Source: a virus (taxonomy: Duplodnaviria > Heunggongvirae > Uroviricota > Caudoviricetes). Taken from it: a DNA stretch of 19,503 nt. Positions 512 to 16,827 of the stretch are shown here, in pieces. Numbering within the stretch: the first letter of the stretch is position 1; each line of letters begins with the position of its first letter. Under the pieces are notes generated by a model. That model saw only the letters and a program-made list of their open reading frames with translations, made no database searches and had not been told where the DNA came from. Position numbers and translations under genes: made by a program. The stretch lies in IMG/VR virus record IMGVR_UViG_3300005836_000011, positions 64,001-83,503 of that record, one strand, 5' to 3'.

Positions 512-556
512 GTGCCCGGATTCGGGCGGCCGAGCGGGGAAGTTCTAGGTTCCTAG

Positions 557-589
557 ACGTACGCGCGCACGCACGCGCGCACGCGCGCG
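557..589. repeat. Alternating purine-pyrimidine tract (potential Z-DNA)
   Basis: ACGTACGCGCGCACGCACGCGCGCACGCGCGCG, 33 nt of unbroken RY alternation. Confidence 0.8.
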
Positions 590-612
590 AGGGGGACGGC
601 TGGACGCGGCCG

Positions 613-948
613 GATTCATGCACGTTCATGGAGCTCGAGCTCCGGCCGGGCGCCGGAGTCATGCACGTTCATGCACGCCCGGAGCGGCCGAGATTCATGC
701 AGGTTTCCGGAGCGCGCAGGATTCGTGTAGGTAGGTCTAGGAACCTAGAGCTCCTCGAGCCGGATTCTCACGCCAGCGTGAAGTCTGGAGCCGGCCGGAT
801 TCATGCAGGATCGGAGTGGCGGCCATTCATGTACGTTCGGGCGGGCCGAGATTCATGCAGGGTAGCCCCTGGCCGGGGCTCGAGTCATGCAGGATTCGGA
901 GCCGTCTGGATGCATACATGTTCTCAGAAATGGCTACAGTCATGCTGC
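613..948 (+). repeat. Cluster of about 9 imperfect direct repeats GA(T/G)TCATGCA(G/C)G in a probably non-coding region
   Basis: Copies starting at 613, 656, 692, 720, 798, 824, 850, 882, 937. Confidence 0.8.
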
Positions 949-972
949 TTATGCACTAGTACCTGCTATACT
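944..972 (+). promoter_or_regulatory. Putative sigma70/SigA-type extended -10 promoter P1
   Basis: TGc-TATACT at 964-972; homologous to 5144-5172 and 11554-11582; upstream of first small-gene run. Confidence 0.65.
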
Positions 973-1019
973 TTAGATAGTGAGGGAACGCGTTAGGCGC
1001 CTCACGGGAAAGGAGATCC

Positions 1020-1319
1020 ATGCTCACGGAACACTCTGTGACTTATGGAGATCCCGGCGGAAGGCACACCGTCATCACTCGTTCGATCTATGGGCCGGGA
1101 CGCGAAGATCGCGACCGCAGAATTCTCGGCACAGAGATCACGGCGGAGAGGTGGTTCGAGGGTGAGATGGCTGGATGGAAGTTCATCGAGTCATGCACAG
1201 AGACCCGGCAGTTCGGCCACATCTCTGAGGCGCAGGCCTGGATGGACGAGATGCTCCACGCCTGGGATCTCGCGCAGGTCAAGAAGTCGGGCGGAACGAA
1301 GCTCGTCGTTCTCTCCTGA
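1020..1319 (+). CDS. Hypothetical protein (99 aa)
   Basis: GAAAGGAG RBS at 1008-1015, ATG start. Confidence 0.85.
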   Translation: MLTEHSVTYGDPGGRHTVITRSIYGPGREDRDRRILGTEITAERWFEGEMAGWKFIESCTETRQFGHISEAQAWMDEMLHAWDLAQVKKSGGTKLVVLS

Positions 1320-1411
1320 CTCGCTGCCATCCCTGCCGATGCAAGCTGTCGGCTGGGATGGGAGCGTCTAGGAACCTAGATTGCTCCATCCTCGATCGAA
1401 AGGAGTTGGCA

Positions 1412-1726
1412 ATGTCCACTCTCGAACGGTTGATCGAGGAGGCCGAGAAGATCGCAGGCGACGGTAACTCTATCGTCGTCTGGGATTCCAGGGATACCGC
1501 CTATGGCGGAACTCGCCTGGAGATTCAGCCCGCTCCGCTCGGTGGCTACCGGGCAATCATGCAAGACGGCGCCGGCATTTGCACGTCTATCTGGCGTCCT
1601 GATTGCAAGATGGTCGAAGCTGCCATGAGCGCGCTGGATGCGTATCTCGGCATCCTCAATCCCAAGATCGAGTCACCGCCGATCTACGTTCGGCAAGTCG
1701 ACTCGAGCGTCTGGGAACTGCTCTAG
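1412..1726 (+). CDS. Hypothetical protein (104 aa)
   Basis: Start reassigned to ATG 1412 after GAAAGGAG RBS; follows dyad site 1367. Confidence 0.85.
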   Translation: MSTLERLIEEAEKIAGDGNSIVVWDSRDTAYGGTRLEIQPAPLGGYRAIMQDGAGICTSIWRPDCKMVEAAMSALDAYLGILNPKIESPPIYVRQVDSSVWELL

Positions 1727-1807
1727 CCTGCCTGCCCTACACGGATGCGTGCACGATTCGTGTAGGGAGGGGAGTCTAGGAACCTAGATTCCGAACGAAG
1801 GAGAGTC

Positions 1808-2083
1808 ATGCCGCTCATGACGCAGCTTCACGATCGCGGCGGCAAGCTCCGAAGTATCCCGTGGTCATGGGAAGATCGCATGATCCTCGCGGAGTACGTT
1901 CTCCTCGACGGCGGTACAGTCGGGGATGCGAAGGCTCCTGAGGACTGGGGTCTGCTCAACATGGGGTACATCGGTGCCGGTTGCGATCACACCTTCGCGA
2001 ACACCTTTGGCTACTGCCAGGTGGACACGAAGAAGGCGATCTGGGTGCGCCCAGGTCAGCGTTACCACGAGTACCGCTCTTAG
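1808..2083 (+). CDS. Hypothetical protein (91 aa)
   Basis: GAAGGAG RBS; follows dyad site 1775. Confidence 0.85.
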   Translation: MPLMTQLHDRGGKLRSIPWSWEDRMILAEYVLLDGGTVGDAKAPEDWGLLNMGYIGAGCDHTFANTFGYCQVDTKKAIWVRPGQRYHEYRS

Positions 2084-2162
2084 CCTGCCTGCCCCGCCGG
2101 GATTCATGCATGACCCCGACGGGGAGGAGAGTCTAAGAACTTAGACTCGGAAAGGAGTCCTC

Positions 2163-2414
2163 ATGACCGAGGACGTCGTCGTCTACAAGATCAACTGCGA
2201 CGACTACCGGACAGAACCGGAGTTTCCATCGGTCGGGAGGGACACACTCGAGGTGGCAAAGGAGTTCTGTCGGCGCCCCAAGTGGCCGTACAAGCTCTCG
2301 GATCACTTCATCGGTGTAGACGACTGGGGTCATGGCAACGTCGTCTGCGCCACGCCGTCCTTCTCGAACTGGATCGGTCAGTCGTTTCGCGAAGTGAAGC
2401 GCACGCTGCACTAG
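2163..2414 (+). CDS. Hypothetical protein (83 aa)
   Basis: GAAAGGAG RBS; follows dyad site 2132. Confidence 0.85.
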   Translation: MTEDVVVYKINCDDYRTEPEFPSVGRDTLEVAKEFCRRPKWPYKLSDHFIGVDDWGHGNVVCATPSFSNWIGQSFREVKRTLH

Positions 2415-2501
2415 CTTCTCGATCCTGCTACCCGCAGATGCGTGTGGGCGCAGGGTCGAGAGTCTAGGAACTTAGACTAGACTCCGAAAGGAGGTGGAAC
2501 G

Positions 2502-2627
2502 ATGCGCGGATCGGTAACGACCATGCTCATCGTTGTCGTTGTGTTCGTGGCGGGTTTCTTTCTGCTTGCTCGAGCAGCAGACCAGGAGTTCCGTTCACAA
2601 GAGTGCCGTCTAACCTGCACTCCGTAG
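2502..2627 (+). CDS. Small membrane protein (41 aa, MRGSVTTMLIVVVVFVAGFFLLARAADQEFRSQECRLTCTP)
   Basis: Not in ORF track; GAAAGGAGG RBS after dyad site 2463; one hydrophobic segment. Confidence 0.75.
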   Translation: MRGSVTTMLIVVVVFVAGFFLLARAADQEFRSQECRLTCTP

Positions 2628-2701
2628 GGAAAGGCTGCCATCCTCGCTGACTTGTGCTGCGGGGATGGGAGTCTAAACTTAGACTTCGGGAAGGAGGCTT
2701 T

Positions 2702-3016
2702 ATGGCCGATCTTTCCTGGGAAAGCGTCTCCGGGCGCGATGATCCCGAACAGCGATTCCGCCTTTATCGCCGAGACTACACAGGCGAGAGAACGCTCATC
2801 GCGACGTGCGCGAGCGAGGAAGCTGTCGGGGTGGCGATATGTCAGCTCGGACGCGAGGGAACGTGGCTCGATTGCGCTCTCGGCATTCTGGATACTCGTC
2901 CTGCGGAGGGCGATCCCAAGTGGATTGTCCTACCGTGGGAGGCCAGCGCCAAGAACGTGCATGAAGCTGCGCGCACGCTCGGGAAAGCGCGTCGCAAGAG
3001 TCGTCTAGGAACCTAG
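2702..3016 (+). CDS. Hypothetical protein (104 aa), ends RLGT* within dyad site
   Basis: AAGGAGG RBS at 2691-2697, ATG 2702 in frame with ORF 2654..3016. Confidence 0.85.
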   Translation: MADLSWESVSGRDDPEQRFRLYRRDYTGERTLIATCASEEAVGVAICQLGREGTWLDCALGILDTRPAEGDPKWIVLPWEASAKNVHEAARTLGKARRKSRLGT

Positions 3017-3095
3017 GCGGTTCTCATTCCCGTCGATTCATGCGGCGGGGATGAGAGTGGGGGAAAGCCCCGCTCGGAACCAGAAGGAGGCTCTT

Positions 3096-3353
3096 GTGGA
3101 CCGTAGAGAGGTCTGGGAGCAAATCGTCTGGACGCTCGAGCAGAAGTTCACCTCTGGCGAGTTCGACGAGGGTGAGTTTCGTGTTGCCAACAATCCGGCA
3201 ATGCGTAGCATCACCATCATTGAGAACTCGACCTCGCAGGCGTTCATGCTGCTCGACGTCACTGGCGCGACGTTTGGGGGTGGAAGGAATCCTGGCGACG
3301 CCATCGTCGTGCAGCTTCCCGTCCATCACAGCGCGAAGGTGCTAGGAACCTAG
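3096..3353 (+). CDS. Hypothetical protein (85 aa), ends VLGT* within dyad site
   Basis: GAAGGAGG RBS, GTG 3096 in frame with ORF 3051..3353. Confidence 0.8.
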   Translation: MDRREVWEQIVWTLEQKFTSGEFDEGEFRVANNPAMRSITIIENSTSQAFMLLDVTGATFGGGRNPGDAIVVQLPVHHSAKVLGT

Positions 3354-3428
3354 CCCCCAGTTGCCATCCCCTCGGTTCGGAGGGGATGGGAGCTGACAAT
3401 CGTTAGTTCCGAACCCGAAAGGAACGAG

Positions 3429-3656
3429 ATGCTGACTTTCATCATCCTCGTGTCTTTCGTGGTCGTGTGCATCCTCGTGCTTGCTCTGCGCGAGTTCTCG
3501 CTTCGGCGCAAGGCCGAGGTCGAGTGGCTCGAGGAGCAGATCGAGGAGGACGTCGTCGCTGGAGTGTTCGATTGGGATTACTCCGGTCTGACGAGGATGG
3601 ATGTGCCGGGGAAGTATCCGGCGCTCCGCACACGCTCCACGAAGGTGCACGTCTAG
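3429..3656 (+). CDS. Small N-terminally membrane-anchored protein (75 aa)
   Basis: GAAAGGA RBS; hydrophobic N-terminus LTFIILVSFVVVCILVLAL; stop inside dyad site 3652. Confidence 0.8.
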   Translation: MLTFIILVSFVVVCILVLALREFSLRRKAEVEWLEEQIEEDVVAGVFDWDYSGLTRMDVPGKYPALRTRSTKVHV

Positions 3657-3660
3657 GAAC

Positions 3661-4227
3661 CTAGACCCCCCGTGCTTTTTCAGGCGGGGGGTCCTTTTTT
3701 GTGCTCTCAAAGAGGTTCGTGTGCAAGTTGCGCGGGATCTCCGCTGCTCTTGCTCGTTGCCACAAGGAGGGCTCGTGTCCGAGGTAGTGGCAGATTCGTG
3801 TGCCGAGAGCCACGTCTAAGTCCTCGACCCAGTACGAGATGTGCGTTCGGCCGATCAGACGTTCATGTATGAGTGCGTGCCACTTGCGCTGGAACTTCAG
3901 TGCCTGGTTCGGAGCTGGTGAGATGTGTACATGCTGGCGCGCGAAGGTTGTGTACCCCGATTCCGGTACATGGAAGAACTCATGTCGTTCGAGTGATGCC
4001 GCAGAGAGCTTGAGGTTACGCCACTGATGCAGAATGAGTAGGTCGGCCGGCGCTTCATTCAAGTAGGGTGCGGCAAGCCAGGATGATTCTCCGTAGGGAG
4101 TTTCCCAATCGTGATCGCCGTGCAGGTTGAATGCATTCTCATGCAGCGTAGGGATGCCGAGAGCCGTGAAGAAAGCCGCGGCATACAGTGTCCCGGAGCG
4201 TGGAGCGGATACGACAAGCAGCCTCAC
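3661..4227 (-). CDS. Sulfotransferase-like protein (188 aa)
   Basis: N-terminal LLVVSAPRSGTLY matches the PAPS-binding 5'-PSB loop (xxPRSGT) of sulfotransferases; GTG start. Confidence 0.7.
   Translation of the reverse strand: MRLLVVSAPRSGTLYAAAFFTALGIPTLHENAFNLHGDHDWETPYGESSWLAAPYLNEAPADLLILHQWRNLKLSAASLERHEFFHVPESGYTTFARQHVHISPAPNQALKFQRKWHALIHERLIGRTHISYWVEDLDVALGTRICHYLGHEPSLWQRARAAEIPRNLHTNLFESTKKDPPPEKARGV
3664..3700 (+). terminator. Rho-independent terminator ending first small-gene run
   Basis: GACCCCCCG...CGGGGGGTC 9-bp stem followed by T6; overlaps 3' end of convergent gene. Confidence 0.8.
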
Positions 4228-4495
4228 ATGCTAAGAACCTAGCAACCTTGCACAATCCCTACACATCGACTCCCAGCGTAGCTTTAGCGCACCACAGCGA
4301 CAGCGAAGTGTTCCCATCTTCTACCGCCGGCGTGATGTGGATTCATGCAGCTTTGCGAGTGCTGTTACCGCCAGCGTGAAGGTTGCTGCCACGATATTGG
4401 TGGTGATGCATGTTTTGCAAACGTTGCAGCAGACAGTCGCGCTCTGGCCAGCGTCTGCGTAGCGCGCTGCTGTCAATCGAAGATTCATGCAGGTT

Positions 4496-5062
4496 CTATT
4501 TTCGAGTGTCTATGAGGACATGGGCACGTAGATCTGATTGCAACTTCGATATTTGAATCGCCTGATGCTGCTGCTGTGTCTCGAGCAGTGTGATTCGCCG
4601 TTCTACTATTGGTTTGTCTCGATTCCAGGCAGATTCACGCTGAATCTGCTGTGAGACATCAGCTGCAGTGATGCCCTGACGAATGATCTGTCCAACTCCT
4701 ATCGCGATCAATGTTGCCATGATCCCGGCAGCCGCAACCCACGCCGTTTGTCGTCCGCGCCCCTCATTCTGGCGCTGTGAAAGAACCTCCACCTGCTTCT
4801 GGAGTAGATCGTGCGCCGAGAGCGGCGTAAACCCACGCTCACGATCATTCATGGCCCCGCGCCATTCGTTCTGAGACTGCCGAACGCGCTCTGCTTCGGC
4901 TTCCGCCTTGTCGATCGCTTTCTGCGATGACAACATCGCGAGGTTGACCTGCTTCTCTCGCTCTGCCAGGACTTGGTCGATCCTGCGAATCTCAGAGTCA
5001 AATAGATCCTTCAGAGACTGCAGATCCGTTGCATTGGCTACGCACCGTTCGTGATCATTCAT
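4496..5062 (-). CDS. Coiled-coil protein with one central transmembrane helix (188 aa)
   Basis: Helical Q/E/K-rich segments flanking AWVAAAGIMATLIAIGVG. Confidence 0.7.
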   Translation of the reverse strand: MNDHERCVANATDLQSLKDLFDSEIRRIDQVLAEREKQVNLAMLSSQKAIDKAEAEAERVRQSQNEWRGAMNDRERGFTPLSAHDLLQKQVEVLSQRQNEGRGRQTAWVAAAGIMATLIAIGVGQIIRQGITAADVSQQIQRESAWNRDKPIVERRITLLETQQQHQAIQISKLQSDLRAHVLIDTRK

Positions 5063-5143
5063 ATGAGAAATGATCGCTGCTGATTAGGTCTTGATGCGCG
5101 CATATTCATGCAGGATCCGTGAACGGGGTTGAGGGTTGATGAT

Positions 5144-5172
5144 TTGGCTTACACACTAGTATCTGCTATGAT
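5144..5172 (+). promoter_or_regulatory. Putative sigma70/SigA-type promoter P2
   Basis: TTGGCT (5144-5149), 17 bp, TATGAT (5167-5172) with extended TG. Confidence 0.7.
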
Positions 5173-5265
5173 TTATGCAGGTGGAGATGTATCCACTGTT
5201 GGTTCTACCCGCAGCCATTTCCGGTGCTGCGGAGACTCTAGGAACCTAGACCCGAAAGGAGAGCC

Positions 5266-5451
5266 ATGAGCGCAAGAGACGCGCTTTTGAAGGCTCGGGA
5301 GGCATGGGCGAAGCAGTCTATGCAGTTGGAACTCGAGCTGGAAGAGCCTCCAGACGAGCCATGCATCGGCACTTGCGGCCGCTGCGGGGCTTACTGGGAC
5401 ATGCGCTACTACGAGACGTGTCCGCCACCGTGTGGTGGTTACGTTGGCTAA
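5266..5451 (+). CDS. Small Cys-rich, zinc-ribbon-like protein (61 aa)
   Basis: GAAAGGAG RBS after dyad site 5237; CGRC...CPPPC. Confidence 0.8.
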   Translation: MSARDALLKAREAWAKQSMQLELELEEPPDEPCIGTCGRCGAYWDMRYYETCPPPCGGYVG

Positions 5452-5650
5452 GCGCAAGAAACACACGTGGGAGGTCGGCGTCGAGAACCTGCGTGCTGAA
5501 TACGAACGCCAGCACCTGCTAGTGACCTCCGCCATCGAATTGGATCCGACCTACAAACGACTTGCCGAGTCGTTTGGGGACGATCCGGAGTTGTGTCAGC
5601 TTCTGACCCAGATGCACCTCAACAGCCCTCGGGGCAGAAGAAAAAGGTAA
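5444..5650 (+). CDS. Hypothetical protein (about 68 aa; start uncertain, 5432 or 5444)
   Basis: Fills the gap in the + strand run; overlaps upstream stop. Confidence 0.6.
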   Translation: MAKRKKHTWEVGVENLRAEYERQHLLVTSAIELDPTYKRLAESFGDDPELCQLLTQMHLNSPRGRRKR

Positions 5651-5672
5651 CTCCAGAGAAAGGAGTTTTGTT

Positions 5673-5885
5673 ATGCCTGCGACCTCGCCTGAGGCGATTG
5701 CGAGAGCTCGTGAGCGTTCTCGCATCCAGTCGCGTAATCGCATCAAGACGTTTCCCGAGTACGTGGAAGCTGTAACGGAGACCACGCTGGTAGTGAGCTG
5801 CGAGCGTTGCTTCGCGTTCTTCGATACACCGCGTCGGCGCGGTGGACGGATTCGGAGGCTTTGCGACGAATGCAACAGCGACTAG
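5673..5885 (+). CDS. Small zinc-finger protein (70 aa)
   Basis: GAAAGGAG RBS; CERC...CDEC; similar to 11695..11910. Confidence 0.8.
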   Translation: MPATSPEAIARARERSRIQSRNRIKTFPEYVEAVTETTLVVSCERCFAFFDTPRRRGGRIRRLCDECNSD

Positions 5886-5976
5886 CGCGTTTCCCGGTCC
5901 TGCCACCTATATTTTTTTTTTGGGCGCGGGGCCGGGAGCTGCGATCTAGGATCCTAGCTCCAGAAGGAGGTGATCC

Positions 5977-6282
5977 ATGCCGTTAGATCCGATGGTATGG
6001 AAGTTGCCGCCTTACATGCGCCGCTTCCCCGACTTCATTGCCGAAGTCTATGAGTCGGAGGAAACCGCACTCGTCGATCTTCTCGAGTTGTGGTTGTGGA
6101 AGTGGGACCTCGCGGACGTGCATCCGGTCTTCGGGCACGCACCGAACAACTTCAAGATGGCCGAACGGCTCGGTCTCGAGGTCGAGGACTATCTTCGCAT
6201 TGAAGAAGAGTCCAGGGCGGTGCTCGACAAGCTCGATACGGCGCTCGGTGAGAGCGATACTCACGAGATGCCAGAGTCTTAG
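5977..6282 (+). CDS. Hypothetical acidic protein (101 aa)
   Basis: GAAGGAGGT RBS after dyad variant 5945. Confidence 0.85.
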   Translation: MPLDPMVWKLPPYMRRFPDFIAEVYESEETALVDLLELWLWKWDLADVHPVFGHAPNNFKMAERLGLEVEDYLRIEEESRAVLDKLDTALGESDTHEMPES

Positions 6283-6364
6283 GGGCTTCGATCCCACGTC
6301 GGTTACCGCTGGCGTGAGGTCGTGGCGTCTAGGAACCTAGGCGTAAACAACAGAAAGGAAATAG

Positions 6365-6613
6365 ATGATTCCGCAAATCAAGTACTTGGACGTTGCTCCC
6401 TCCAAGATGGACGAGCTTGTCTTTGTCGGAGTGGCGCACCAGACCACGATTGAGGACGACGGAGAAATTATCTCGCTCTACATCTATCCCCACGAACAGC
6501 ATCCCGCCCGTTACGTGTGCGAGACAGAGGAACTCGACGTTCTAACTGCCTCTGCTGACATCAACAACAAAGGCAATCTGCAAGGCATCGAAGTCATCCT
6601 GAAAAGGAGGTGA
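6365..6613 (+). CDS. Hypothetical protein (82 aa)
   Basis: GAAAGGA RBS after dyad site 6328. Confidence 0.8.
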   Translation: MIPQIKYLDVAPSKMDELVFVGVAHQTTIEDDGEIISLYIYPHEQHPARYVCETEELDVLTASADINNKGNLQGIEVILKRR

Positions 6614-6614
6614 T

Positions 6615-6785
6615 ATGAGGTTGATTCTCAACTCAATGATCGAGAAGTGCCCATTCCTCATCATGGTCGCTGCGCACTATCGGGACGATGGCACATGCAA
6701 GTGCGATGATCCCAAAGAGCGTGCTCGCATGATCGCAGAGTGGGGCTACACCGAGGAATCGTTCAAAAGAGCTGGCATCGTCTAA
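6615..6785 (+). CDS. Hypothetical protein (56 aa, MRLILNSMIEKCPFL...KRAGIV)
   Basis: Not in ORF track; AAGGAGGT RBS; TAA stop lies within dyad site 6781. Confidence 0.75.
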   Translation: MRLILNSMIEKCPFLIMVAAHYRDDGTCKCDDPKERARMIAEWGYTEESFKRAGIV

Positions 6786-6807
6786 GAACCTAGACAGGAG
6801 GGAGTTC

Positions 6808-7424: not shown

Positions 7425-7433
7425 TCCAGACAC

Positions 7434-7465
7434 GGGGGCGCCCGATCTGTGTGTCGGGTGCCCCC
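7434..7465. other. GC-rich intergenic hairpin without U-tract
   Basis: GGGGGCGCCCGA...TCGGGTGCCCCC. Confidence 0.6.
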
Positions 7466-7494
7466 ATTACGCACGTCCTGAAAGGAAAAGATCC

Positions 7495-8099: not shown

Positions 8100-8314
8100 T
8101 GGATTGTTTGTATCAACAGCAAAAAAGGAAGGCCTACCGATTCCTGCACAACGAGTCAGACGAATCTCTGCTGAAGAGACGCAGGCAGCATGAGGAGGAG
8201 TGTGAACAAGGATATTATGGGGATGCTGGAACGCTTGCACGAGGGAGACGACTTATCTGGATGCGCACAACTCGTATGGAAATCGCGGCTAGGAACCTAG
8301 AAAGGGGTTTCTAA
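8096..8314 (+). CDS. Small protein of the E[AIL]xxR(G)L family (72 aa)
   Basis: GTGA coupling; C-terminus WMRTTRMEIAARNL; reads through dyad site 8288. Confidence 0.7.
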   Translation: MMDCLYQQQKRKAYRFLHNESDESLLKRRRQHEEECEQGYYGDAGTLARGRRLIWMRTTRMEIAARNLERGF

Positions 8315-8776
8315 ATGAGCAAGCTTGCACTACCGTGCATCAAGTGCGGAAAACCTTTGCGCAACTGCGACGAGGACATAGACAACCAACCATCCGGCGG
8401 AACGGAGTTCACAACTTACGGACACTACGGTTCCACCATTCATGATGAAGTGATGTTCCTCTACGAGGGGGCTGAGAAGGAGAATCTTCTTGAACTCGTC
8501 GTGAACATCTGCGATACGTGCATCCTGCGAGCAATCGACGCTGGCATAATCCAGTCCCGATCCAAGGAGGTCATACTTAGCCGGCATCCTGTCACGCCTG
8601 AATCTCGAGCATGGGTGCTCGCGCAGAACGAGAAGCAGTACGGCTCTGCCTGGGGAGATGATGAGCCGGTCGATTACGACGCCGAGATGCTCAAAGCGGG
8701 CTGGTCTGAGGAGTTGATAGGAGATGACGAGGTGCGCGAAGCGCATGTCTTTCCTGATGATGAGCTAAGAACTTAG
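8315..8776 (+). CDS. Zinc-finger-containing protein (153 aa), ends LRT* within dyad site
   Basis: CIKC and CDTC pairs; TAAATG junction. Confidence 0.8.
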   Translation: MSKLALPCIKCGKPLRNCDEDIDNQPSGGTEFTTYGHYGSTIHDEVMFLYEGAEKENLLELVVNICDTCILRAIDAGIIQSRSKEVILSRHPVTPESRAWVLAQNEKQYGSAWGDDEPVDYDAEMLKAGWSEELIGDDEVREAHVFPDDELRT

Positions 8777-8791
8777 AAGGGAGCAGAAAAG

Positions 8792-9282: not shown

Positions 9283-9656
9283 GCGTGACTCCCATCTTCA
9301 TGGTTGCCCTACTCATCTATCTCGTCGTGGCGTCATACGTCGCGCATGAGTACGGACACGCGTTCACGGCCAAGGCGCTGGGCGGGAAGCTGCACGGCTG
9401 GCGCTTCTACTGGTATGCAGTCGGGTACGCCATCGAAGTGCCGAGTGGAAACCGTCTACGTCTAACTGCGCTTGGAGGGATAGTTGTCACGCTGGCGTTA
9501 GCTGGCGTGGGATGGATGCTGACGCCGGCGTGGTGGGCGGTGTGCCTGATGGTATTCAACCTGGCACTTGCATTTTGCAATCTCATCCCTGTTCCCGGCA
9601 CGGACGGATGGATCATCCTCAAAGGCAAGGCAACATCTAGGAACTTAGAACCCTGA
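9279..9656 (+). CDS. Minimal site-2 protease-like (peptidase M50) membrane metalloprotease (125 aa)
   Basis: HEYGH within a hydrophobic helix and NLIPVPGTDG (NxxPxxxxDG); several hydrophobic segments. Confidence 0.85.
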   Translation: MSVTPIFMVALLIYLVVASYVAHEYGHAFTAKALGGKLHGWRFYWYAVGYAIEVPSGNRLRLTALGGIVVTLALAGVGWMLTPAWWAVCLMVFNLALAFCNLIPVPGTDGWIILKGKATSRNLEP

Positions 9657-9671
9657 AAGGGGGGGTCGGAA

Positions 9672-10488: not shown

Positions 10489-10685
10489 AGACCTGCGAGG
10501 GATCCTTGGCGAGCGATCAACGTTGCATCATCGCTTTCGATGACGCTCAAATCGTGGAGGGCGTTACGAAGCATGCCGATCCTGAGTGGTGGAAAGAAAT
10601 TCGCAATGGCGCCTACAACATCGCTTATCTGCGACGTTGGGGCACGCAACTCAGACGCGAAGCACGAAGGCGAGGAATCTTGTGA
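10485..10685 (+). CDS. Small protein of the E[AIL]xxRG[LI] family (66 aa)
   Basis: ATGA overlap; WGTQLRREARRRGI. Confidence 0.75.
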   Translation: MKTCEGSLASDQRCIIAFDDAQIVEGVTKHADPEWWKEIRNGAYNIAYLRRWGTQLRREARRRGIL

Positions 10686-10873
10686 GCGAGAAATCCAAAC
10701 TCAACCTGGAGATAAATCAGCTTCGGCTAGAAGTAGCCCAGGCTGCCGGAAAGCTTCGCGCGGCGTACAACCACGAGGACTGGACAACTTTCCATTTGCA
10801 ACTCGGGATGCTGCAAGGTCTTGGCATGCGCGTGTATGAGGCGAATGCAAAACTCGACCGTCTAGGAACCTAG
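10682..10873 (+). CDS. Hypothetical helical protein (63 aa), ends RLGT* within dyad site
   Basis: GTGA overlap; in frame with ORF 10586..10873. Confidence 0.75.
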   Translation: MSEKSKLNLEINQLRLEVAQAAGKLRAAYNHEDWTTFHLQLGMLQGLGMRVYEANAKLDRLGT

Positions 10874-10888
10874 AGAAAGGAGGTTCAA

Positions 10889-11149
10889 TTGCCCGAAAGG
10901 CGGTATACGCCCGAAGAATCCTCTCGGTTTCATGATCTACGTCATAGTTCCTACTCGATCGGCAGGAAAAGACAGGAAGAAGCTGCTCGAAAGGAAACTG
11001 ATTTGGACCTCCACCAACAGTTGGCTAAATACGTAGACAAAAGTGATGAGTGGTTTAGTAGAAGAACCCTAGCTCGCGTGAAGAGGCGGGTCTATATTCA
11101 AGAGGCTCTCCGGCGTGGCCTAATTCTTCCGAAAGGAGTGAGTAAATGA
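10889..11149 (+). CDS. Small protein of the E[AIL]xxRG[LI] family (86 aa)
   Basis: GAAAGGAGG RBS, TTG start; VYIQEALRRGL. Confidence 0.75.
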   Translation: MPERRYTPEESSRFHDLRHSSYSIGRKRQEEAARKETDLDLHQQLAKYVDKSDEWFSRRTLARVKRRVYIQEALRRGLILPKGVSK

Positions 11150-11562
11150 ACGAGCCAACAGCCCAGGATCTTGCGCGGTGGGCGAAATGGGACGATCTAC
11201 GCGCCCGTGAAGCCGCGGCTACGAGTGACGAGGAACGTGCTGCTCTTGTAATCGAGCGAGACAAACTTGATGCTGAGAGCATCAAGGAGATGCTGCTCCA
11301 GGAAATGGATACGGAGCCTCAGTGGTACTGGCTCTCGTTTCGAGACCCCGATACCAACACCAATCTCGGAGTTGCCATCGTCGAAGGAGGAGGGATCGTC
11401 GAAGCATCACTTAACGCCAAGCTCGCCAAGTGCAATCCCGGAGGAGAAATCCTGGGCTATGTACTTGACTCCGAGAACTTGCCGCCGGAAGAACTGCGCT
11501 ATCGCCTGCTCTCGGAGCAGGAACTCGAAGACGCTGGTCTCTTGGCTACCGATTCTGCTTAG
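11146..11562 (+). CDS. Hypothetical acidic protein (138 aa)
   Basis: AAGGAG RBS, ATGA overlap. Confidence 0.8.
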   Translation: MNEPTAQDLARWAKWDDLRAREAAATSDEERAALVIERDKLDAESIKEMLLQEMDTEPQWYWLSFRDPDTNTNLGVAIVEGGGIVEASLNAKLAKCNPGGEILGYVLDSENLPPEELRYRLLSEQELEDAGLLATDSA

Positions 11563-11582
11563 AGCCTGAAACCTGCTAAGAT
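11554..11582 (+). promoter_or_regulatory. Putative extended -10 promoter P3
   Basis: CTGCTTA-N9-ACCTGC-TAAGAT; aligns without gaps to P1. Confidence 0.6.
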
Positions 11583-11694
11583 ATAGTTAGTGCCCTTTGC
11601 GGGCACTCTCTGCGTTTATCCACACCCTGCGTCTAAGAACTTAGACGCCAACCCGATAAGGAAGGGCGTGATGAGTAACGCTGAGTATTAGGCC

Positions 11695-11910
11695 ATGTCG
11701 CACGCCCTGGAAAGGGGGTCGCCATTGTCCAGAAGCCCAGACAAGAAGCTCGACAATGTCGGCTGGTGCGAGCGTTGTCTGCGTCCATTCGATCGTCCAA
11801 CACCCTCCAAGCTCGGAGGGTGGAAGGTGTGCGACGACTGTATGGCTCACAACACGAGCGCTCGTGCACGTCGCAGAAAGGAGAGAAGCCTGGCTCACAA
11901 AACGAAGTAA
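11695..11910 (+). CDS. Small zinc-finger protein (71 aa; an RBS-linked in-frame start at 11671 is interrupted by TAG 11689-11691)
   Basis: CERC...CDDC; similar to 5673..5885. Confidence 0.7.
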   Translation: MSHALERGSPLSRSPDKKLDNVGWCERCLRPFDRPTPSKLGGWKVCDDCMAHNTSARARRRKERSLAHKTK

Positions 11911-11952
11911 CTGATCTAGGAACCTAGACCAACAAATCCGAAAGGACATAAG

Positions 11953-12954
11953 TTGACTCAGATTATGGATTGGAACATCATCGAGGCTATCGAGCGGGGC
12001 GCGTATCGCGTTCTCTTGTACGGGCCTCCGGGAACGGGCAAGACGACCAGTGCATACAACGCAGCGAAAAAGCTCGGCAAGAGCGTCTACAACATCACGC
12101 TCTCGGACGAAACTCCTGCCGCCGAGTTGCGCGGTCACTTCATCCCAATGGGATCGGAGTGGAAGTGGATGCATGGTCCTGCGGTGCGCGCATACCTGGA
12201 AGGCGCCGTGCTGCTCTTGGATGAGATCGACAAGGCCTCGCAGGATGCGCTCGACTTCCTGCACGGTCTGCTCAACGACCCCGATGTGGCGCGTCTCACG
12301 CTTCCGAATGGCGAGACGATCACTCCCGCACCGGGCTTCCAGGTCATCGCCACGATGAACGGAGAACTCGACGACCTGCAGCCCGCTCTGCAGGATCGGT
12401 TTGCCATCGCCATCGAGGTGCGTAAGCCCCATCCTGACGCCATCAAGGCGCTCCCTGCCGATCTGCAGAGTGCAGCCAAGACGGTCGAGGACTACGAGAA
12501 CGCAGAGAGGCCGGCCACGCTCAGGCGCTGGGCGGCTTTCGCACTTCTGCGGGAGTTGGAGGAAGTCGGTCCTCAGAATGCGGCCAAGGCCGTGTTCGCG
12601 CACCGCGCAGGGGAACTGTTGGACGCCATCTCCTTCAAGGCCACCAAGGGTGGAGTGGCGACGAAGAGCAAGACCGCCAAGCGTGCCAAGAGCAAGCCCG
12701 CCACCGCTGCCATGAAGGCGAAGGCCAGGGTTATTCGCGGCGAGGAAGGATTCTGCACTTGCGAGGACTGCGTGGAGGGCCGTGCGTGGGATTGGGCTGG
12801 CCATACGTACAACATCTCCGTGATCGAGGAGAACGATGGCGTGTACGAGTGCCCACAGTGTGGCGAAGAGCACCCCGGAACGCTCGAGGCGCTCACGTGC
12901 TGCTTCCAGGAGGATCGCTGGCTCATCGAGGGACGTAAGCTCGGGTTGGTCTAG
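11953..12954 (+). CDS. MoxR/CbbQ/CobS-like AAA+ ATPase (AAA_5 type) with Cys-rich C-terminal extension (333 aa)
   Basis: Walker A GPPGTGKT, Walker B LLLDEID, sensor-1 IATMN, Arg-finger ALQDRF; GAAAGGA RBS, TTG start. Confidence 0.92.
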   Translation: MTQIMDWNIIEAIERGAYRVLLYGPPGTGKTTSAYNAAKKLGKSVYNITLSDETPAAELRGHFIPMGSEWKWMHGPAVRAYLEGAVLLLDEIDKASQDALDFLHGLLNDPDVARLTLPNGETITPAPGFQVIATMNGELDDLQPALQDRFAIAIEVRKPHPDAIKALPADLQSAAKTVEDYENAERPATLRRWAAFALLRELEEVGPQNAAKAVFAHRAGELLDAISFKATKGGVATKSKTAKRAKSKPATAAMKAKARVIRGEEGFCTCEDCVEGRAWDWAGHTYNISVIEENDGVYECPQCGEEHPGTLEALTCCFQEDRWLIEGRKLGLV

Positions 12955-12956
12955 TC

Positions 12957-13208
12957 ATGGACTGCCGAGCACCATCAGCGAAAACATGGCGTCTGAACTG
13001 TCCAGACTGGAGCGATGACTACGCCGTCCAGGAACTTCGTCGAGCATGGGATCGACTGGAAGGCGGAAAACCGTGGCATCAAGGCCCTCCTTACAACACC
13101 ACCCATCACGACTGGACAAACTTCCGAGCCTCCACGCTGAGGGAGGCACGCAAACGCGGGCTTGACCTCTCGGTCACCGGAAAGGCCGCGCATAAGGGTA
13201 GGAGGTGA
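12957..13208 (+). CDS. Small protein of the E[AIL]xxRG[LI] family (83 aa)
   Basis: DWTNFRASTLREARKRGLDLSVT; tandem paralog of next gene. Confidence 0.8.
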   Translation: MDCRAPSAKTWRLNCPDWSDDYAVQELRRAWDRLEGGKPWHQGPPYNTTHHDWTNFRASTLREARKRGLDLSVTGKAAHKGRR

Positions 13209-13212
13209 GTGC

Positions 13213-13431
13213 ATGGAATGCAGATCACCATGCCTCGAAGAACATCGTGAGAACATGGAAAACTACGCTGATGAGGACGTCCTCGACGAACTCGAACGTG
13301 CCTGGGAGCATCCTCGTAGGGAAGAAACAGGCGACTGGCAGAGGCAGGACTGGTCGACGTTCCGTGCAATCACGCTACGCGAGGCACGTAGACGCGGACT
13401 CGACCTTTCGGTAACGAAGGCACGCCGATGA
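13213..13431 (+). CDS. Small protein of the E[AIL]xxRG[LI] family (72 aa)
   Basis: AGGAGGTG RBS, ATG 13213 in frame with ORF 13162..13431; DWSTFRAITLREARRRGLDLSVT. Confidence 0.8.
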   Translation: MECRSPCLEEHRENMENYADEDVLDELERAWEHPRREETGDWQRQDWSTFRAITLREARRRGLDLSVTKARR

Positions 13432-13622
13432 GCGAACCTCGCCATAAGGTCATGTCTGCTGCAATCCATACCAATCTACGCGTTTGGAGTAACTACTTGC
13501 GCGAGGCCCAGAACTCCTTAATAACGGCCTGCCTAAGAGAGGTGTATCCCGCAGATGCTTACCACGACCTGTGGAGGAGACTCGTAAGGCAGGAGGCAGC
13601 TAGACGAAAGCTAGGAACCTAG
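13428..13622 (+). CDS. Small protein of the E[AIL]xxR family (64 aa), ends KLGT* within dyad site
   Basis: ATGA overlap; WRRLVRQEAARRKL. Confidence 0.75.
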   Translation: MSEPRHKVMSAAIHTNLRVWSNYLREAQNSLITACLREVYPADAYHDLWRRLVRQEAARRKLGT

Positions 13623-13832
13623 ATGGCATGCCTAGGCAGGTATATCGGGAATTATCGGAATGGTGTTTCCGTAAAGACCGACAAAATCCTGCTTCTCAAT
13701 GCGAAGGGTCTCACGGATGACGGTAAAGGCTACTGGTACATACACACCAGACCAGAGTTGCGCTTGTACATGCGACTCGTGAGGCAGGAAATTCATCGAC
13801 GTGGACTCAAAGTTCCGACGCTAGGAACTTAG
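13623..13832 (+). CDS. Small protein of the E[AIL]xxRG[LI] family (69 aa), ends TLGT* within dyad site
   Basis: TAGATG junction; YMRLVRQEIHRRGL. Confidence 0.75.
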   Translation: MACLGRYIGNYRNGVSVKTDKILLLNAKGLTDDGKGYWYIHTRPELRLYMRLVRQEIHRRGLKVPTLGT

Positions 13833-13843
13833 AAGGAGGTTCA

Positions 13844-15340
13844 ATGGCAACCCGCAGAGGAAAAAAGCAACCCGCGACGATCCTGGGAGGAACTCCCGTT
13901 GGGAAGAAGGTCCCTCACAAGGTACGTCCGTTCCCTGAGATCATCGACGAAACCGATTGGGAAGTGCGCGAGGGTCGTTACCCATCGTTCATCAAGCGTT
14001 CAGAAGTTGCGGAGAGGCCGCACATCATGCAGGTGCCGCTCGGGGAGACGCCGATTGATCGCAAGATTCGGCTTCACGAGCAGGCGCACGTTGCCTGGAC
14101 GCCACCAATCCGTGAGGATGATGAGCGTCTGTGGAGTCTGGGTGAAATCGACACACTCAACGCAACCGAAGATGCGCGCATCATCGAACTGATGAATCGC
14201 ACAAATCCCGAGTGGAGGAAGCTCAACGAGAAGGAGGTGGGACTACTCACACCACAAATGCAGTCGGCATTCCAGGATGGCTTTTCTCGTCTGGCGGCAC
14301 ATCTGCGTGGAGAGAAGAAGAAGGAAGTACCGAAGGGCAAGCTGGCCCCCAAGGATATGAACCTCGTGGAGGCTGCGCGTTTGATCGCCTCAACGCGTGG
14401 CTATGCCGAGGGGCACATCTTCGATCAGATCGCTGCAAGCTCAGACCTTGCATGGGTGACGAGCGAAGTCGAGAAGATGCACGATGCGTACATTGCATCC
14501 AATCCCGAGCCAACTTTCGATGATGCTATCGGGTACGCCGAGGAGCTGGAGCAGTACTTCTACCGAAAGCAGGAGCAGATCGAGGAAGAGAATGCGGCGC
14601 TCGCAGAATCTGGCATGGAGCGATGGGGAGGCGATTCCACGAAGGAAGGAAAGCCTGTCTTCACTCCCCCCACGATCGAAAAGGGCAAGTACAAGCCCTC
14701 GGAAGCTCGCGATGGCTTCGGTAAGAAGCCGAAGCGCACGCGGTACGGAGAGGCTCGCTGGGGCCAGCTCACTATCGTGCAGCAGCCTCTTGTGGACAAA
14801 CTCGCCGCACGTGAGGCGCGCAGGGTCCGTCCATCTGATATGGGTGCTGTCCCTCGTTACATGCACCGACTTCTCACCGACCAGCGCGTCTTTGGCCGCA
14901 GGCGTAAGAAGAAGGCATTTGAGGGAACGGTGCTGATCGACTGCTCTGGCTCTATGCATCTCACGGCCGATATGGTTGATGAGATCCTCAGACGTTGGCC
15001 CGCTGTCACAGTGGCGACGTATGCGGGAATGGGCGAAACCGGCCAGATGTGGATCATCGCCAAGAAAGGCAAGCGAGCAAGTAAGGACAGGATCAAGCCA
15101 CCCGGCGGCGGGAACGTTGTGGACGGCCCCTGCCTGGATTGGCTCGCCAAGCAGCGTATGCCGCGCGTGTGGATCTCGGACGGAGGAGTCACTGGCATCG
15201 GGGACGGTGCCCACATCGACTTCGTCAAGGATGCCGCCGTCAAGATGAAGCGCGGAAACATCAAGCGTCTCGGAAATGCACAAGCCCTTCTTCGCGGAGG
15301 AGGATCCGAGGAGTACAGCGACTATGCCGAGCGTTACTAA
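13844..15340 (+). CDS. VWA-domain protein with N-terminal HExxH metallopeptidase-like motif (CobT/DUF2201-like architecture, 498 aa)
   Basis: IRLHEQAH near the N-terminus; VLIDCSGSM (MIDAS DxSxS); GAAGGAGGT RBS; near a MoxR-type ATPase. Confidence 0.85.
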   Translation: MATRRGKKQPATILGGTPVGKKVPHKVRPFPEIIDETDWEVREGRYPSFIKRSEVAERPHIMQVPLGETPIDRKIRLHEQAHVAWTPPIREDDERLWSLGEIDTLNATEDARIIELMNRTNPEWRKLNEKEVGLLTPQMQSAFQDGFSRLAAHLRGEKKKEVPKGKLAPKDMNLVEAARLIASTRGYAEGHIFDQIAASSDLAWVTSEVEKMHDAYIASNPEPTFDDAIGYAEELEQYFYRKQEQIEEENAALAESGMERWGGDSTKEGKPVFTPPTIEKGKYKPSEARDGFGKKPKRTRYGEARWGQLTIVQQPLVDKLAAREARRVRPSDMGAVPRYMHRLLTDQRVFGRRRKKKAFEGTVLIDCSGSMHLTADMVDEILRRWPAVTVATYAGMGETGQMWIIAKKGKRASKDRIKPPGGGNVVDGPCLDWLAKQRMPRVWISDGGVTGIGDGAHIDFVKDAAVKMKRGNIKRLGNAQALLRGGGSEEYSDYAERY

Positions 15341-15380
15341 CCAGAGTCTAGGAACCTAGACAGGAAAGGAGAACCTCTCT

Positions 15381-16280
15381 ATGTCAGAGGTCAACTTCAT
15401 GGTTTGTGCACGCGTCGATGAGATCGACGAACCCATAGAGAACTCCACCACAACGGCTTGCGTGGAATGTGGCTGCGATATTTGGATCAGCCCCGAGTCA
15501 CGCAAAGTCATGCGCGAGAAGAAGGCTTTTCCCTGCTGTGGACCTTGCGCATTGCGTCTGGCGGGAGAGCATCACACCGAGATTCGTAGCGTGCCCGGAA
15601 TAGATGGAACAGGACTGAATGCTGGGCAAATTCAGGAACTTGAGCAGGCTCTCGAAAAGACGCGAGAGATGCATCAGTTCGCCGAAAGCATGGGCATGAG
15701 CTTCGACGAGCTAAAGAACAAGGCCGAGAAGATCATCGAGGCGGGTATCGGCGAAGACACCGACCACTTCGAAGCGCTCAAGATCACTGCTCGACTGGCA
15801 GCGAAGGAAATGACCAATCCGGAGCAAAGTTGGGGATCAACAGTCATCATGGAGGACTACGATCGGCGGCTCTCTCCTCCGCTTCCATTTGAGGAGATGT
15901 GTGAGAACCTTGGGAAGGAGATGGTGGCCAACAACGTGTTGCCTTCCCTGGCGCTTGCAGTACACGCAAAGAGAGTGATCTTTGCACTTGAGGCCTGGGG
16001 TCTCCAGTCGGAGACTGAGAGAATAGAACTCACCGGACCGATCTCAGAACATCCCGACAAGATGGAAATGTTGGTCTTGCTCGACGTACGGGCCGTGGGC
16101 GTCGTGAAGATGAGTAGAGCTGAGATCAAGAGGGATGGCATCAGCCCGCCCAGCCTTAGTGAGTGGGAGGATGAAGAACCCGAGTCAGGAAAGCATGGAG
16201 GGCTATTTGTGGAAGCTCTCATCCCTACCTTGCAGCTGATCAAGCAGCTGCACGACCAACAGGAAGGAGGCTCTATGTGA
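15381..16280 (+). CDS. Protein with N-terminal zinc-finger-like domain (299 aa)
   Basis: GAAAGGAG RBS after dyad site 15347; CVEC...CCGPC. Confidence 0.85.
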   Translation: MSEVNFMVCARVDEIDEPIENSTTTACVECGCDIWISPESRKVMREKKAFPCCGPCALRLAGEHHTEIRSVPGIDGTGLNAGQIQELEQALEKTREMHQFAESMGMSFDELKNKAEKIIEAGIGEDTDHFEALKITARLAAKEMTNPEQSWGSTVIMEDYDRRLSPPLPFEEMCENLGKEMVANNVLPSLALAVHAKRVIFALEAWGLQSETERIELTGPISEHPDKMEMLVLLDVRAVGVVKMSRAEIKRDGISPPSLSEWEDEEPESGKHGGLFVEALIPTLQLIKQLHDQQEGGSM

Positions 16281-16489
16281 ATCCCGTCCTGCCATGCCCT
16301 TGGTGTGGAAAGGACACCGATTTCCATGAGGATGAGGTGGAAGAGGTCGCAGATGGACGCGCGATTTGCCTCAAATGTGGGCTTGAAATGGCCGAGACCA
16401 CGATGATCCTCGAGATAGTTGCGGGGGAACACCCGCATCTAGTCCCGGATGAAGAGGACGAAGGGGACGGTGCTAGTGCGACCGAGTAG
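16277..16489 (+). CDS. Small acidic zinc-ribbon protein (70 aa)
   Basis: GAAGGAGG RBS; CPWC...CLKC. Confidence 0.75.
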   Translation: MNPVLPCPWCGKDTDFHEDEVEEVADGRAICLKCGLEMAETTMILEIVAGEHPHLVPDEEDEGDGASATE

Positions 16490-16515
16490 TATGATGGTCG
16501 CGAAAGGGGTGATAG

Positions 16516-16740
16516 ATGAGCGAAGATAATGGCCCTGGAACCAGGCCACAACCAACGAGTTTCTGGCTCGATGATGAGACGAAGACCATTCTGACTCGCC
16601 TAACACGCGAGCTAGGCATGAACCGTTCGGCCGTCGTGCGTGAAGCTGTGCGCAGGATGGTCGCAGCAGACAATGGTGCTGAAGTCCGTCGTCTCGTTGC
16701 TGAACTCGAACGTGCCGTGACCGGTGGAGGTGATGTCTAA
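16516..16740 (+). CDS. Ribbon-helix-helix (CopG/Arc-like) DNA-binding protein (74 aa)
   Basis: PTSFWLDDETKTILTRLTRELGMNRSAVVREAV fits the RHH strand-helix-turn-helix pattern; TAA stop within dyad site 16736. Confidence 0.85.
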   Translation: MSEDNGPGTRPQPTSFWLDDETKTILTRLTRELGMNRSAVVREAVRRMVAADNGAEVRRLVAELERAVTGGGDV

Positions 16741-16827
16741 GAACCTAGCTATGACGTACTTGAACACCGTGTCGTAGGTGTGGTAGATTTCCACCTACAC
16801 TATGTTCACCGACCTGAAAGGAGAAAG

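Follow-up and report, generated by a model that had tools for sequence, protein, structure and literature searches.

A repeated palindrome at the early-gene junctions of an uncultivated siphovirus, probably an operator on double-stranded DNA, and its candidate reader

Cluster O mycobacteriophages (Corndog and others) carry a 17-bp palindrome, TGTTCGG-NNN-CCGAACA, in 34 copies, for which a dimeric regulator has been proposed and whose function has been unsettled since 2015 (PMC4351075). The stoperators of Cluster A phages, which are read by the L5 gp71-type repressor, are asymmetric, are bound by a monomer with two DNA-binding domains and serve lysogeny; reversing a stoperator abolishes repression, and the bound repressor is thought to stop elongating RNA polymerase in addition to initiation (PMC9283540, PMC6550527). 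Here, we describe a 12-bp word, CTARGAACYTAG, that recurs throughout much of a 19,503-nucleotide stretch of viral DNA (hereafter the window), which covers positions 64,001 to 83,503, the final 19.5 kb, of the 83.5-kb virus record IMGVR_UViG_3300005836_000011. The repeat is probably a 14-15-bp palindrome, (G)T-CTAGG-AA-CCTAG-A, that is bound by a protein on double-stranded DNA. It joins the dispersed palindromes known from gene boundaries of actinobacteriophages, above all of Cluster O, for which neither a reader nor a function has been established, and it adds a concrete pair of protein and site that can be tested.

An earlier note on this DNA, made from the letters alone, had counted 23 copies of the word, an AT-centred copy and a copy shorter by 2 nt, with about 0.01 expected by chance, and a pattern search with shuffles bore out these figures. 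The 23 exact CTARGAACYTAG matches comprise 14 copies of CTAGGAACCTAG and three each of CTAGGAACTTAG, CTAAGAACCTAG and CTAAGAACTTAG; dinucleotide-preserving shuffles gave a mean of 0.01, and none of 200 reached 23. The AT-centred perfect palindrome, CTAGGATCCTAG, occurs once in the window (5946-5957), and the shorter copy is CTAAACTTAG at 2673-2682. The positions first given denote the same sites, although they are mostly 1 nt too low and include the flanking T. The complete genome contains 32 exact sites, or 35 together with three AT-centred copies. The consensus word contains CTAG twice, as two sub-palindromes whose centres are separated by 8 bp, and has a stop codon in two frames of each strand. 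CTAG is depleted in the genome, at 0.58 of expectation, and 56 of its 182 occurrences fall in sites.

Relatives that use the same word were reached via a 498-aa protein encoded in the window (13844-15340) and its homologues in a large protein collection and the contigs belonging to it. The protein has 74 metagenome homologues and no Pfam match; a HExxH-like motif is invariant, and a C-terminal DxSGS motif resembles the MIDAS of vWA domains. Its gene adjoins that of a MoxR-type AAA_5 ATPase (333 aa), with which it forms a conserved pair (11953-15340). Contigs with 498-aa homologues at 62-75% identity carry the word many times and in the same orientation, one 80-kb contig having 17 exact copies in 21.5 kb. 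Among the six loci, L169 equals L168 over an overlap of 11.8 kb and L171 equals L170 over 9.8 kb (100% each), leaving four independent phages; L174 was counted as a fifth independent relative. In the sister lineage to which the latter belongs (L174/L304, 45% identity in the 498-aa marker), the word is CTAGGATCCTAG, with ~25 copies, near variants included, in 21 kb. The unique sites of this genome and of four independent relatives, 75 altogether, form the pool used below. Where the flanking DNA is 66-74% identical, the sites are intact at orthologous junctions, for example on both sides of the 498-aa gene, and single sites can be lost at such junctions; this pattern suggests that purifying selection holds the site word.

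Outside this group, the word is virtually confined to chance occurrences. In 185,579 GTDB species genomes, the 15-mer gave 49 single chance matches in unrelated taxa, and it is therefore neither a host repeat nor the mark of a prophage. The exact 14-mer matched 93 IMG/VR contigs, with one chance copy each and no multi-copy occurrence, which shows that this collection lacks the true relatives, and an IMG/VR search with the 498-aa protein, as a single protein and as a profile, returned relatives of at most 30% identity. In the searchable literature, the literal site words occur only in unrelated cloning oligonucleotides. More distant relatives, found via the capsid protein (G006-G010), do not carry the word in any case; they carry unrelated palindromes of their own. 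In one of them (G007, an IMG/VR genome of 100.9 kb, which appears to be the same phage as G008, given identical matches at a constant offset of 6,386 bp), an 18-bp palindrome, CTTCTCA-N4-TGAGAAG, is present in 20 copies, mainly at 85-100 kb, with the centres ATAT, GGAC/GTCC, AGAT and ACAT. Within the small-gene region, most of the copies lie 3-10 nt upstream of the ribosome-binding site (RBS) of small minus-strand genes. An architecture common to the group with a word specific to each lineage would fit a co-evolving, phage-encoded reader. Because the palindrome thus differs by lineage at like positions, we lean slightly towards a reader encoded by the phage.

Within the pooled sites, the information is confined to (G)T-CTARGAACYTAG-A, positions -2 to +13, and the logo is symmetric from -1 to +13. 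The arms are fixed save for one position per half-site, there is no conserved element at a fixed distance on either flank, and the flanks of the copies are dissimilar beyond +/-2. The two variable positions, 4 and 9, are mirror images of each other, and they vary without compensation: the pairs are G-C in 59 sites, A.C in 10, A-T in 3 and G.T in 3. This is in line with the earlier claim that the half-sites vary independently, including the combination that cannot pair in RNA; the non-pairing form, CTAAGAACCTAG (A opposite C), accounts for three window copies and 10 of the 75 pooled sites. Complementarity of the flanks is in weak excess at +/-3 and +/-4 only. When folded as RNA, the core reaches -1.4 kcal/mol as a 12-mer and -3.3 kcal/mol as a 14-mer with its T/A flank, and the common variant CUAAGAACCUAG does not fold at all (0.0 kcal/mol). 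Since the information is confined to the palindrome, compensation is absent and the RNA fold is weak, a symmetric protein on duplex DNA is preferred over a hairpin as the cause of the symmetry. The earlier note had come to the same view from the variants, and the sites in the control regions described below, which appear not to be transcribed, lend it further support.

The distribution of the sites follows the division of the genome into two arms. The virion arm lies on the minus strand (genome 18.5-63 kb), and the arm of small, early genes runs on the plus strand from 63.7 kb through the end of the record to ~18.4 kb. A scan of the whole genome, as the earlier note had proposed, revealed that the density is not uniform: the early arm has 1.46 sites/kb over its first 16.4 kb and 0.33/kb over the remainder, and the virion arm has 0.07/kb. 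Gene junctions were judged by our own rough gene calls, according to which 18% of the genome is non-coding; about 4 of the 35 sites are located fully within coding sequence, and about half of all non-overlapping junctions carry a site. Every window copy except those at 545 and 737 lies at a gene junction, as had been noted before. About a dozen upstream genes terminate at the TAG or TAA of a site. From the site to the next start codon there are usually 0-32 nt, and 75-79 nt in three cases where a larger hairpin lies between, so that the full range is 0-79 nt. Three sites occupy positions more typical of operators, namely in the divergent region between the arms (genome 63334) and at window 545 and 737. 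A second phage and the AT-centred lineage likewise have sites at both places, the divergent region and the stretch before the first early gene.

Most sites end 0-20 nt upstream of an RBS, and the unrelated palindrome of the distant relative G007 is placed alike. Such a placement, together with the fact that 68 of the 75 pooled sites have their AA centre aligned with local transcription and 7 have it opposed, could reflect an operator at the RNA level. The transcribed palindrome would then fold into a small hairpin shortly before the Shine-Dalgarno sequence, in the 5' leaders of the individual early cistrons; it might be bound by an RNA-binding repressor, like T4 RegA, or might mark or protect the 5' end after processing, like in the RNase III-processed early mRNAs of T7. 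At five consecutive junctions, a larger GC-rich hairpin lacking a T-run stands immediately 5' of the site, and the palindrome of the distant relative would fold at -6.9 kcal/mol. However, the core hairpin of the word itself is marginal, non-compensated A.C combinations outnumber compensated A-U pairs by 10 to 3, the covariation in the flanks is only weak, and the distance from site to RBS varies from 0 to ~65 nt. Furthermore, several sites lie at places unlikely to have a sense transcript or an RBS: one site follows a terminator (480-505), another precedes the first gene by 271 nt, and a third resides in the divergent inter-arm region; a function in leader RNA is hard to reconcile with the sites in the divergent and control regions. 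We therefore regard an operator acting in RNA as the strongest rival explanation, yet an unlikely one.

The preference for gene starts could alternatively indicate that each site forms the core of a phage-specific promoter for a small early gene or group of genes, comparable to T4 early or late promoters. The sites precede most non-overlapping gene starts, and TAGATT or TAGACT, similar to an actinobacterial -10 hexamer, can be read at the 3' end of the word in the first five junctions. Yet, the final T of the TANNNT hexamer is present in only 6 of the 75 sites, no -35-like or other element occurs at a fixed distance, and a simple window scan yielded 3 sigma-70-like matches versus 6.8 expected by chance. 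A symmetric word that is tolerated in both orientations at the same junction is not what a promoter would require, and sites located 0-11 nt from a start codon leave no room for a leader. Moreover, no phage gene of the size of an RNA polymerase was seen, and the sole sigma-like match is a small GerE-type protein. This makes a promoter function highly improbable, and the least plausible of the explanations considered.

The orientation of the word calls for some caution. In the window, 22 of 23 exact copies have the AA on the plus strand, with only 545-556 reversed, as previously described, and for the 32 sites of the genome the ratio of sites with to sites against local transcription is 28:4. 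The bias exceeds the general excess of A over T on the sense strand, with p ranging from 0.03 to 1e-4 in this genome depending on the null model. The orthologous site at the stop codon of a gene for a ribbon-helix-helix (RHH) protein is centred on AA here, on AT in two phages and on TT in two others, and one conserved gene is preceded by a site that stands in reverse in each of the two phages possessing it. All remaining asymmetries of the site either add A to the sense strand or preserve stop codons. Because one orthologous site carries AA, AT or TT across phages, orientation does not seem to be strictly required, and we treat it as a soft feature with a residual bias that lacks an explanation.

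The presence of 12-14-bp words at so many junctions raises the question of whether they arose as recombination or junction sites, serving as microhomology or as recombinase targets by which cassettes of small genes are shuffled (compare T4-type PeSLs and integron attC sites); the earlier note had offered this as an alternative to an operator network. Two local patterns resemble cassettes: an open reading frame (ORF) is flanked by sites here (13611/13821) where relatives have a single site, and the site-bounded cassettes between a 138-aa gene and the AAA ATPase gene differ among phages. For Cluster O, two deletions between palindrome copies were inferred by the authors (PMC4351075). As about half of the non-overlapping junctions hold a site, patterns of this kind are expected by chance. 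Synteny was compared across six genomes, with families based on our own rough gene calls and BLASTP, and synteny breaks do not preferentially fall in sites: sites are found at 31 of 125 breaks versus 26 of 79 conserved adjacencies (Fisher p 0.26), a result that is unchanged if the count is restricted to junctions wide enough to hold a site. In addition, sites are stably inherited at orthologous junctions of phages whose proteins are 62-75% identical, no tyrosine or serine recombinase domain was found in the genome, and the dissimilarity of the flanks beyond +/-2 indicates that the copies have not spread as larger cassettes. A role in building the gene array is thus very unlikely; recombination may be an occasional side effect of the repeats, as was proposed for Cluster O, and not the reason for their existence.

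If the sites are operators on duplex DNA, a sequence-specific protein should accompany them. Pfam scans of 44 window ORFs and ten further ORFs of the early arm revealed three DNA-binding candidates: (i) a 74-aa RHH protein (16516..16740, plus strand; RHH_1, E 1.6e-6, residues 14-47), (ii) a 296-aa ParB-like protein (DUF6551; 17154..18044, plus strand; Pfam and PHROG matches) and (iii) a 109-aa GerE-type protein (genome 18080-18409; Pfam). A winged-helix protein, which had been named as a further candidate, was not detected by Pfam among the 44 window ORFs. Homologues of the RHH protein are present in all six of the six site-bearing lineages, including the AT-centred one (48% over 56 residues), and their N-terminal strand, PTSFWL, the presumed DNA-reading element, is invariant at overall identities of 43-75%. 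A metagenome scan with an RHH profile retrieved six more contigs (1-7 kb) that encode the same strand, each with at least one site, whereas unrelated RHH proteins found in the scan were not accompanied by the site. Against the PDB, the phage protein has weak matches to CopG, NikR, MazE6 and VapB26 (E 0.02-0.2). Two capsid-level relatives have RHH reading strands that are alike and palindromes that are different, and for this reason covariation of reader and word does not provide an argument beyond the lineage.

The two other candidates named by these scans follow the word less closely. The ParB-like protein is 73-83% identical in three phages, but only 28% identical in the 80-kb phage (the phage of L168), which has an identical site word, and no convincing homologue was seen in the 31 kb read of the AT-centred lineage (L174/L304). 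This protein, too, had been named in the earlier note; it fits poorly and appears to be the weaker candidate. The GerE-type protein had no tblastn match at E <0.1 in the loci of the relatives; a GerE domain is listed in the loci of three relatives and not in those of the 80-kb phage or the AT-centred lineage. A 254-aa protein encoded beside the control region was considered as a regulator as well. It has no Pfam or PHROG match and is 51% identical in the second phage, and the gene at the like position in the AT-centred lineage is unrelated. The RHH protein, which the earlier note had also listed, thus remains the best candidate among those considered, an assignment that we put forward tentatively and would sooner expect to fail than to hold.

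The copies may then constitute a genome-wide operator network, read by a sequence-specific protein of the phage lineage and clustered in two control regions and where the operons of the early arm meet. The RHH protein would bind each site as a dimer of dimers, with one dimer per CTAG sub-palindrome. Produced from the middle of the early arm, it would subsequently occupy 30 or more sites, where its presence could damp initiation at the control regions and read-through along the small early genes, resulting in negative feedback or early shut-off in a seemingly lytic phage. The early arm may be transcribed from few promoters, with the sites acting as internal punctuation. That the sites function as roadblocks or in shut-off is possible, albeit doubtful.

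Several points weigh against this proposal. The site, its symmetry, distribution and conservation and its occurrence together with the RHH protein are observed; that a protein binds it, which protein this is and how transcription responds are what we infer from sequence comparison. A symmetric dimer does not account for the orientation bias of the AA centre, and the position of the sites shortly before the RBS would suit an RNA-level operator, too. Hardly any sigma-70-like promoters turned up close to the sites in a simple scan for the consensus; a repressor would have to act on elongation, a mode that is hypothetical for symmetric sites in a lytic phage. As all site-bearing phages belong to one lineage, the co-occurrence of RHH protein and word is not independent of descent; other core proteins, among them a zinc-ribbon protein (16277-16489) and proteins of unknown function with 138, 299 and 498 aa, are equally conserved. 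It is also possible that the reader is another conserved small protein or is encoded by the host.

A broader, rather speculative generalization would be that uncultivated siphoviruses of the actinobacterial type, possibly along with Cluster O, share one design, in which almost all operon boundaries of the early arm carry a palindrome specific to the lineage and a tiny phage protein made from the middle of that arm, of the RHH type in this case, gates read-through gene by gene. We consider this improbable as it stands. If true, the sites would be the symmetric counterpart of stoperators in a lytic phage and would explain the Cluster O repeats. Should the proposed pair of protein and site hold, it would reveal how dozens of small early genes are timed in their expression by a phage that is probably lytic and has hardly any recognisable promoters. 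The case is unusually clean, with one site per 0.7 kb, at least six independent uncultivated phages and one small candidate reader. Being built of two CTAGs, which are depleted in the genome, the site word could also help to spot this phage group in metagenomes.

The individual sites are given here in window coordinates; all lie on the plus strand unless stated otherwise. The control region contains the reversed CTAGGAACCTAG at 545..556 (minus strand), 40 nt past the strong terminator 480-505 and far from any RBS, and CTAGGAACCTAG at 737..748, among GATTCATGCA repeats and 271 nt before the first early gene. CTAGGAACCTAG follows at 1368..1379, between the stop at 1319 (48 nt away) and ATG 1412 (32 nt away), and at 1776..1787, between a stop (49 nt) and ATG 1817 (29 nt). 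CTAAGAACTTAG at 2133..2144 has arms that extend to 9 bp (2129-2148), as does its copy at 11633..11644 (11629-11648), both in agreement with the earlier description; the former lies 18 nt before ATG 2163. CTAGGAACTTAG at 2464..2475 precedes ATG 2502 by 26 nt, and the degenerate CTAAACTTAG at 2673..2682 occupies the same place in its intergenic unit as the full copies do. In two CTAGGAACCTAG copies, the second TAG is a stop codon, namely that of ORF 2702-3016 (site 3005..3016) and that of ORF 3096-3353 (site 3342..3353), and in a third (3653..3664) the first TAG terminates ORF 3429-3656 and is followed by a terminator-like hairpin with a T-run. CTAAGAACCTAG at 4231..4242 lies upstream of the minus-strand ORF 3661-4227, with 3 nt between the site and the start of that ORF. 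CTAGGAACCTAG at 5238..5249 (ATG 5266 after 16 nt), the strand-neutral AT-centred CTAGGATCCTAG at 5946..5957 (ATG 5977 after 19 nt) and CTAGGAACCTAG at 6329..6340 (ATG 6365 after 24 nt) come next.

Further downstream, the TAA of CTAAGAACCTAG at 6782..6793 is the stop of ORF 6615-6785, with ATG 6808 after 14 nt. CTAGGAACCTAG at 8289..8300 is separated by the same distance of 14 nt from ATG 8315, the ORF of which (8315-8776) ends with the TAG of CTAAGAACTTAG at 8765..8776. CTAGGAACTTAG at 9637..9648 is read through in its one open frame at the end of ORF 9285-9656, 23 nt before ATG 9672, and the TAG of CTAGGAACCTAG at 10862..10873 closes ORF 10682-10873. CTAGGAACCTAG at 11916..11927 is located upstream of the gene for the AAA_5 (MoxR-like) ATPase, the TTG of which (11953) begins 25 nt after it, and CTAGGAACCTAG at 13611..13622 directly abuts ATG 13623. 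The 498-aa gene is preceded by CTAGGAACTTAG at 13821..13832, which is kept at the orthologous junction in five relatives, and followed by CTAGGAACCTAG at 15348..15359, which is kept in four relatives and lost in one. Finally, the TAA of CTAAGAACCTAG at 16737..16748 is the stop of the RHH gene, and the orthologous site is AT- or TT-centred in other phages.

The gaps around the first of these sites have a recurrent build. Between 1320 and 3400, five consecutive junctions consist of a stop, a GC-rich hairpin of ~35 nt without a T-run, a site and an RBS, and the two junctions after them have the order site, hairpin, RBS. TAGCCTGCCTGCC is common to two intergenic units, after the stop. The GC-rich intergenic hairpins may be elements of RNA processing or stabilization.

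The control region (506..1019, plus strand), ahead of the first early gene, comprises two sites, an alternating GC tract, the GATTCATGCA array and a -10-like TATACT, and the same layout is found in the second phage, the 80-kb relative (L316). The repeat GATTC(A/G)TG(C/T)A is present in 11 copies between 600 and 5110, all on the plus strand (~614, 693, 721, 799, 825, 851, 1756, 2102, 4341, 4483 and 5104); six are clustered within 250 bp directly before the early genes begin, and the loops of intergenic hairpins contain others. The control region of the second phage (L316:3490-3700) has the same repeat, again on the plus strand only. The array could represent iterons or an activator or promoter-upstream array. 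Just past the first control-region site, the purine-pyrimidine alternating GC tract ACGCGCGCACGCACGCGCGCACGCGCGCG (558-590) has a composition that can form Z-DNA and is kept in kind at L316:3420-3450. The sole promoter-like element conserved in the two phages consists of ATGCTGCTTA, ~12 nt and TATACT or TACAAT (940-1020 in the window, L316:3740-3803). It lies ~50 nt before the first early gene, downstream of the plus-strand GATTCATGCA array, and is possibly the principal promoter of the early genes. The divergent region between the arms (L012:9190-9330, genome 63190-63330) holds about ten GGCAAC/GTTGCC repeats immediately beside the AT-centred site; in the corresponding region of the second phage, the site is accompanied by another direct repeat, GCTAAGCATTAGCCAC, in two copies.

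As for the phage itself, PHROG matches identified a tape measure protein, a major head protein, a portal and a large terminase, as in a siphovirus. The major capsid protein has homologues among cultured phages in actinobacteriophages only, at 35% identity at most, and a nucleotide search with the whole window found no match in cultured phages. Neither Phage_integrase nor Resolvase domains, characteristic of tyrosine and serine recombinases, were found in the complete record, and the phage seems to be lytic, with no sign of being temperate; silencing in a lysogen is thus not indicated, although lysogeny by another route is conceivable. Despite the size of the genome, no recognisable DNA polymerase, primase or helicase was present among the subset of ORFs scanned. 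The gene at 19141-19503 continues from genome position 121 onward, crossing the ends of the record, and its product aligns over 101-157 residues with proteins of the relatives. Given this continuity, the 120-bp direct terminal repeat of the record probably arose as an overlap in the assembly, from a genome that is circular or circularly permuted, and does not mark a physical end.

Among known systems, several resemble the network in part. Cluster K start-associated sequences lack symmetry and lie at a constant distance from the start codon, where they overlap the RBS, and the PeSLs of T4-type phages combine an early promoter with a stem-loop and mark points of shuffling. Both share with the present word its repetition upstream of many small early genes; the former differ from it in that the word is a palindrome with a site-to-start distance of 0-79 nt, the latter in that the sites have no promoter consensus beside them and no excess at synteny breakpoints. 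MetJ binds tandem met-boxes in an 8-bp register, the RHH dimer having a two-fold axis of its own, and the core of the Escherichia coli trp operator is CTAG-N4-CTAG; the two CTAG sub-palindromes with centres 8 bp apart recall both. There is, however, no sequence similarity to the MetJ, Arc, CopG or trp operators, and those regulators serve few promoters rather than at least 30 junctions. In the KorB-OB system of the IncP plasmid RK2, a short palindrome is likewise distributed across a replicon as a control network (PMC11790492), and a ParB-family gene is present here, too; unlike in that system, the ParB-like protein of the phage diverges where the word is identical (28%) and was not found in the 31 kb of the sister lineage.

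The analogy with Cluster A stoperators, which the earlier note had drawn, holds for the distribution: in both cases, at least 20 copies of 13-14 bp are located in short intergenic gaps throughout the genome. The copies are oriented with transcription as well, strictly in the stoperators and as a soft bias here. It does not extend further, since the present site is a palindrome and not an asymmetric 13-mer, reversed and symmetric centres persist at orthologous junctions, and neither an integrase nor another sign of a temperate lifestyle was found in the record. The Cluster O repeats are the closest known counterpart. Both words occur in more than 30 copies with near-invariant arms and a short A/T-rich centre (AAA/TTT there, AA here), are enriched in the short gaps of the non-structural arm and recur at the same positions in related phages; both are absent from host genomes, lose sites by single base changes and have few insertions or deletions between copies. 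The words themselves differ, as does their geometry, which is 7-3-7 in Cluster O and 6-2-6 here (7-2-7 with the G/C flank), and the phages are only remotely related. In Corndog, the repeats have little orientation preference and about one third of them lie in genes, whereas in the present genome 28 of 32 are aligned with transcription, only about 4 of 35 are intragenic, and one candidate reader stands out by its distribution among the phages.

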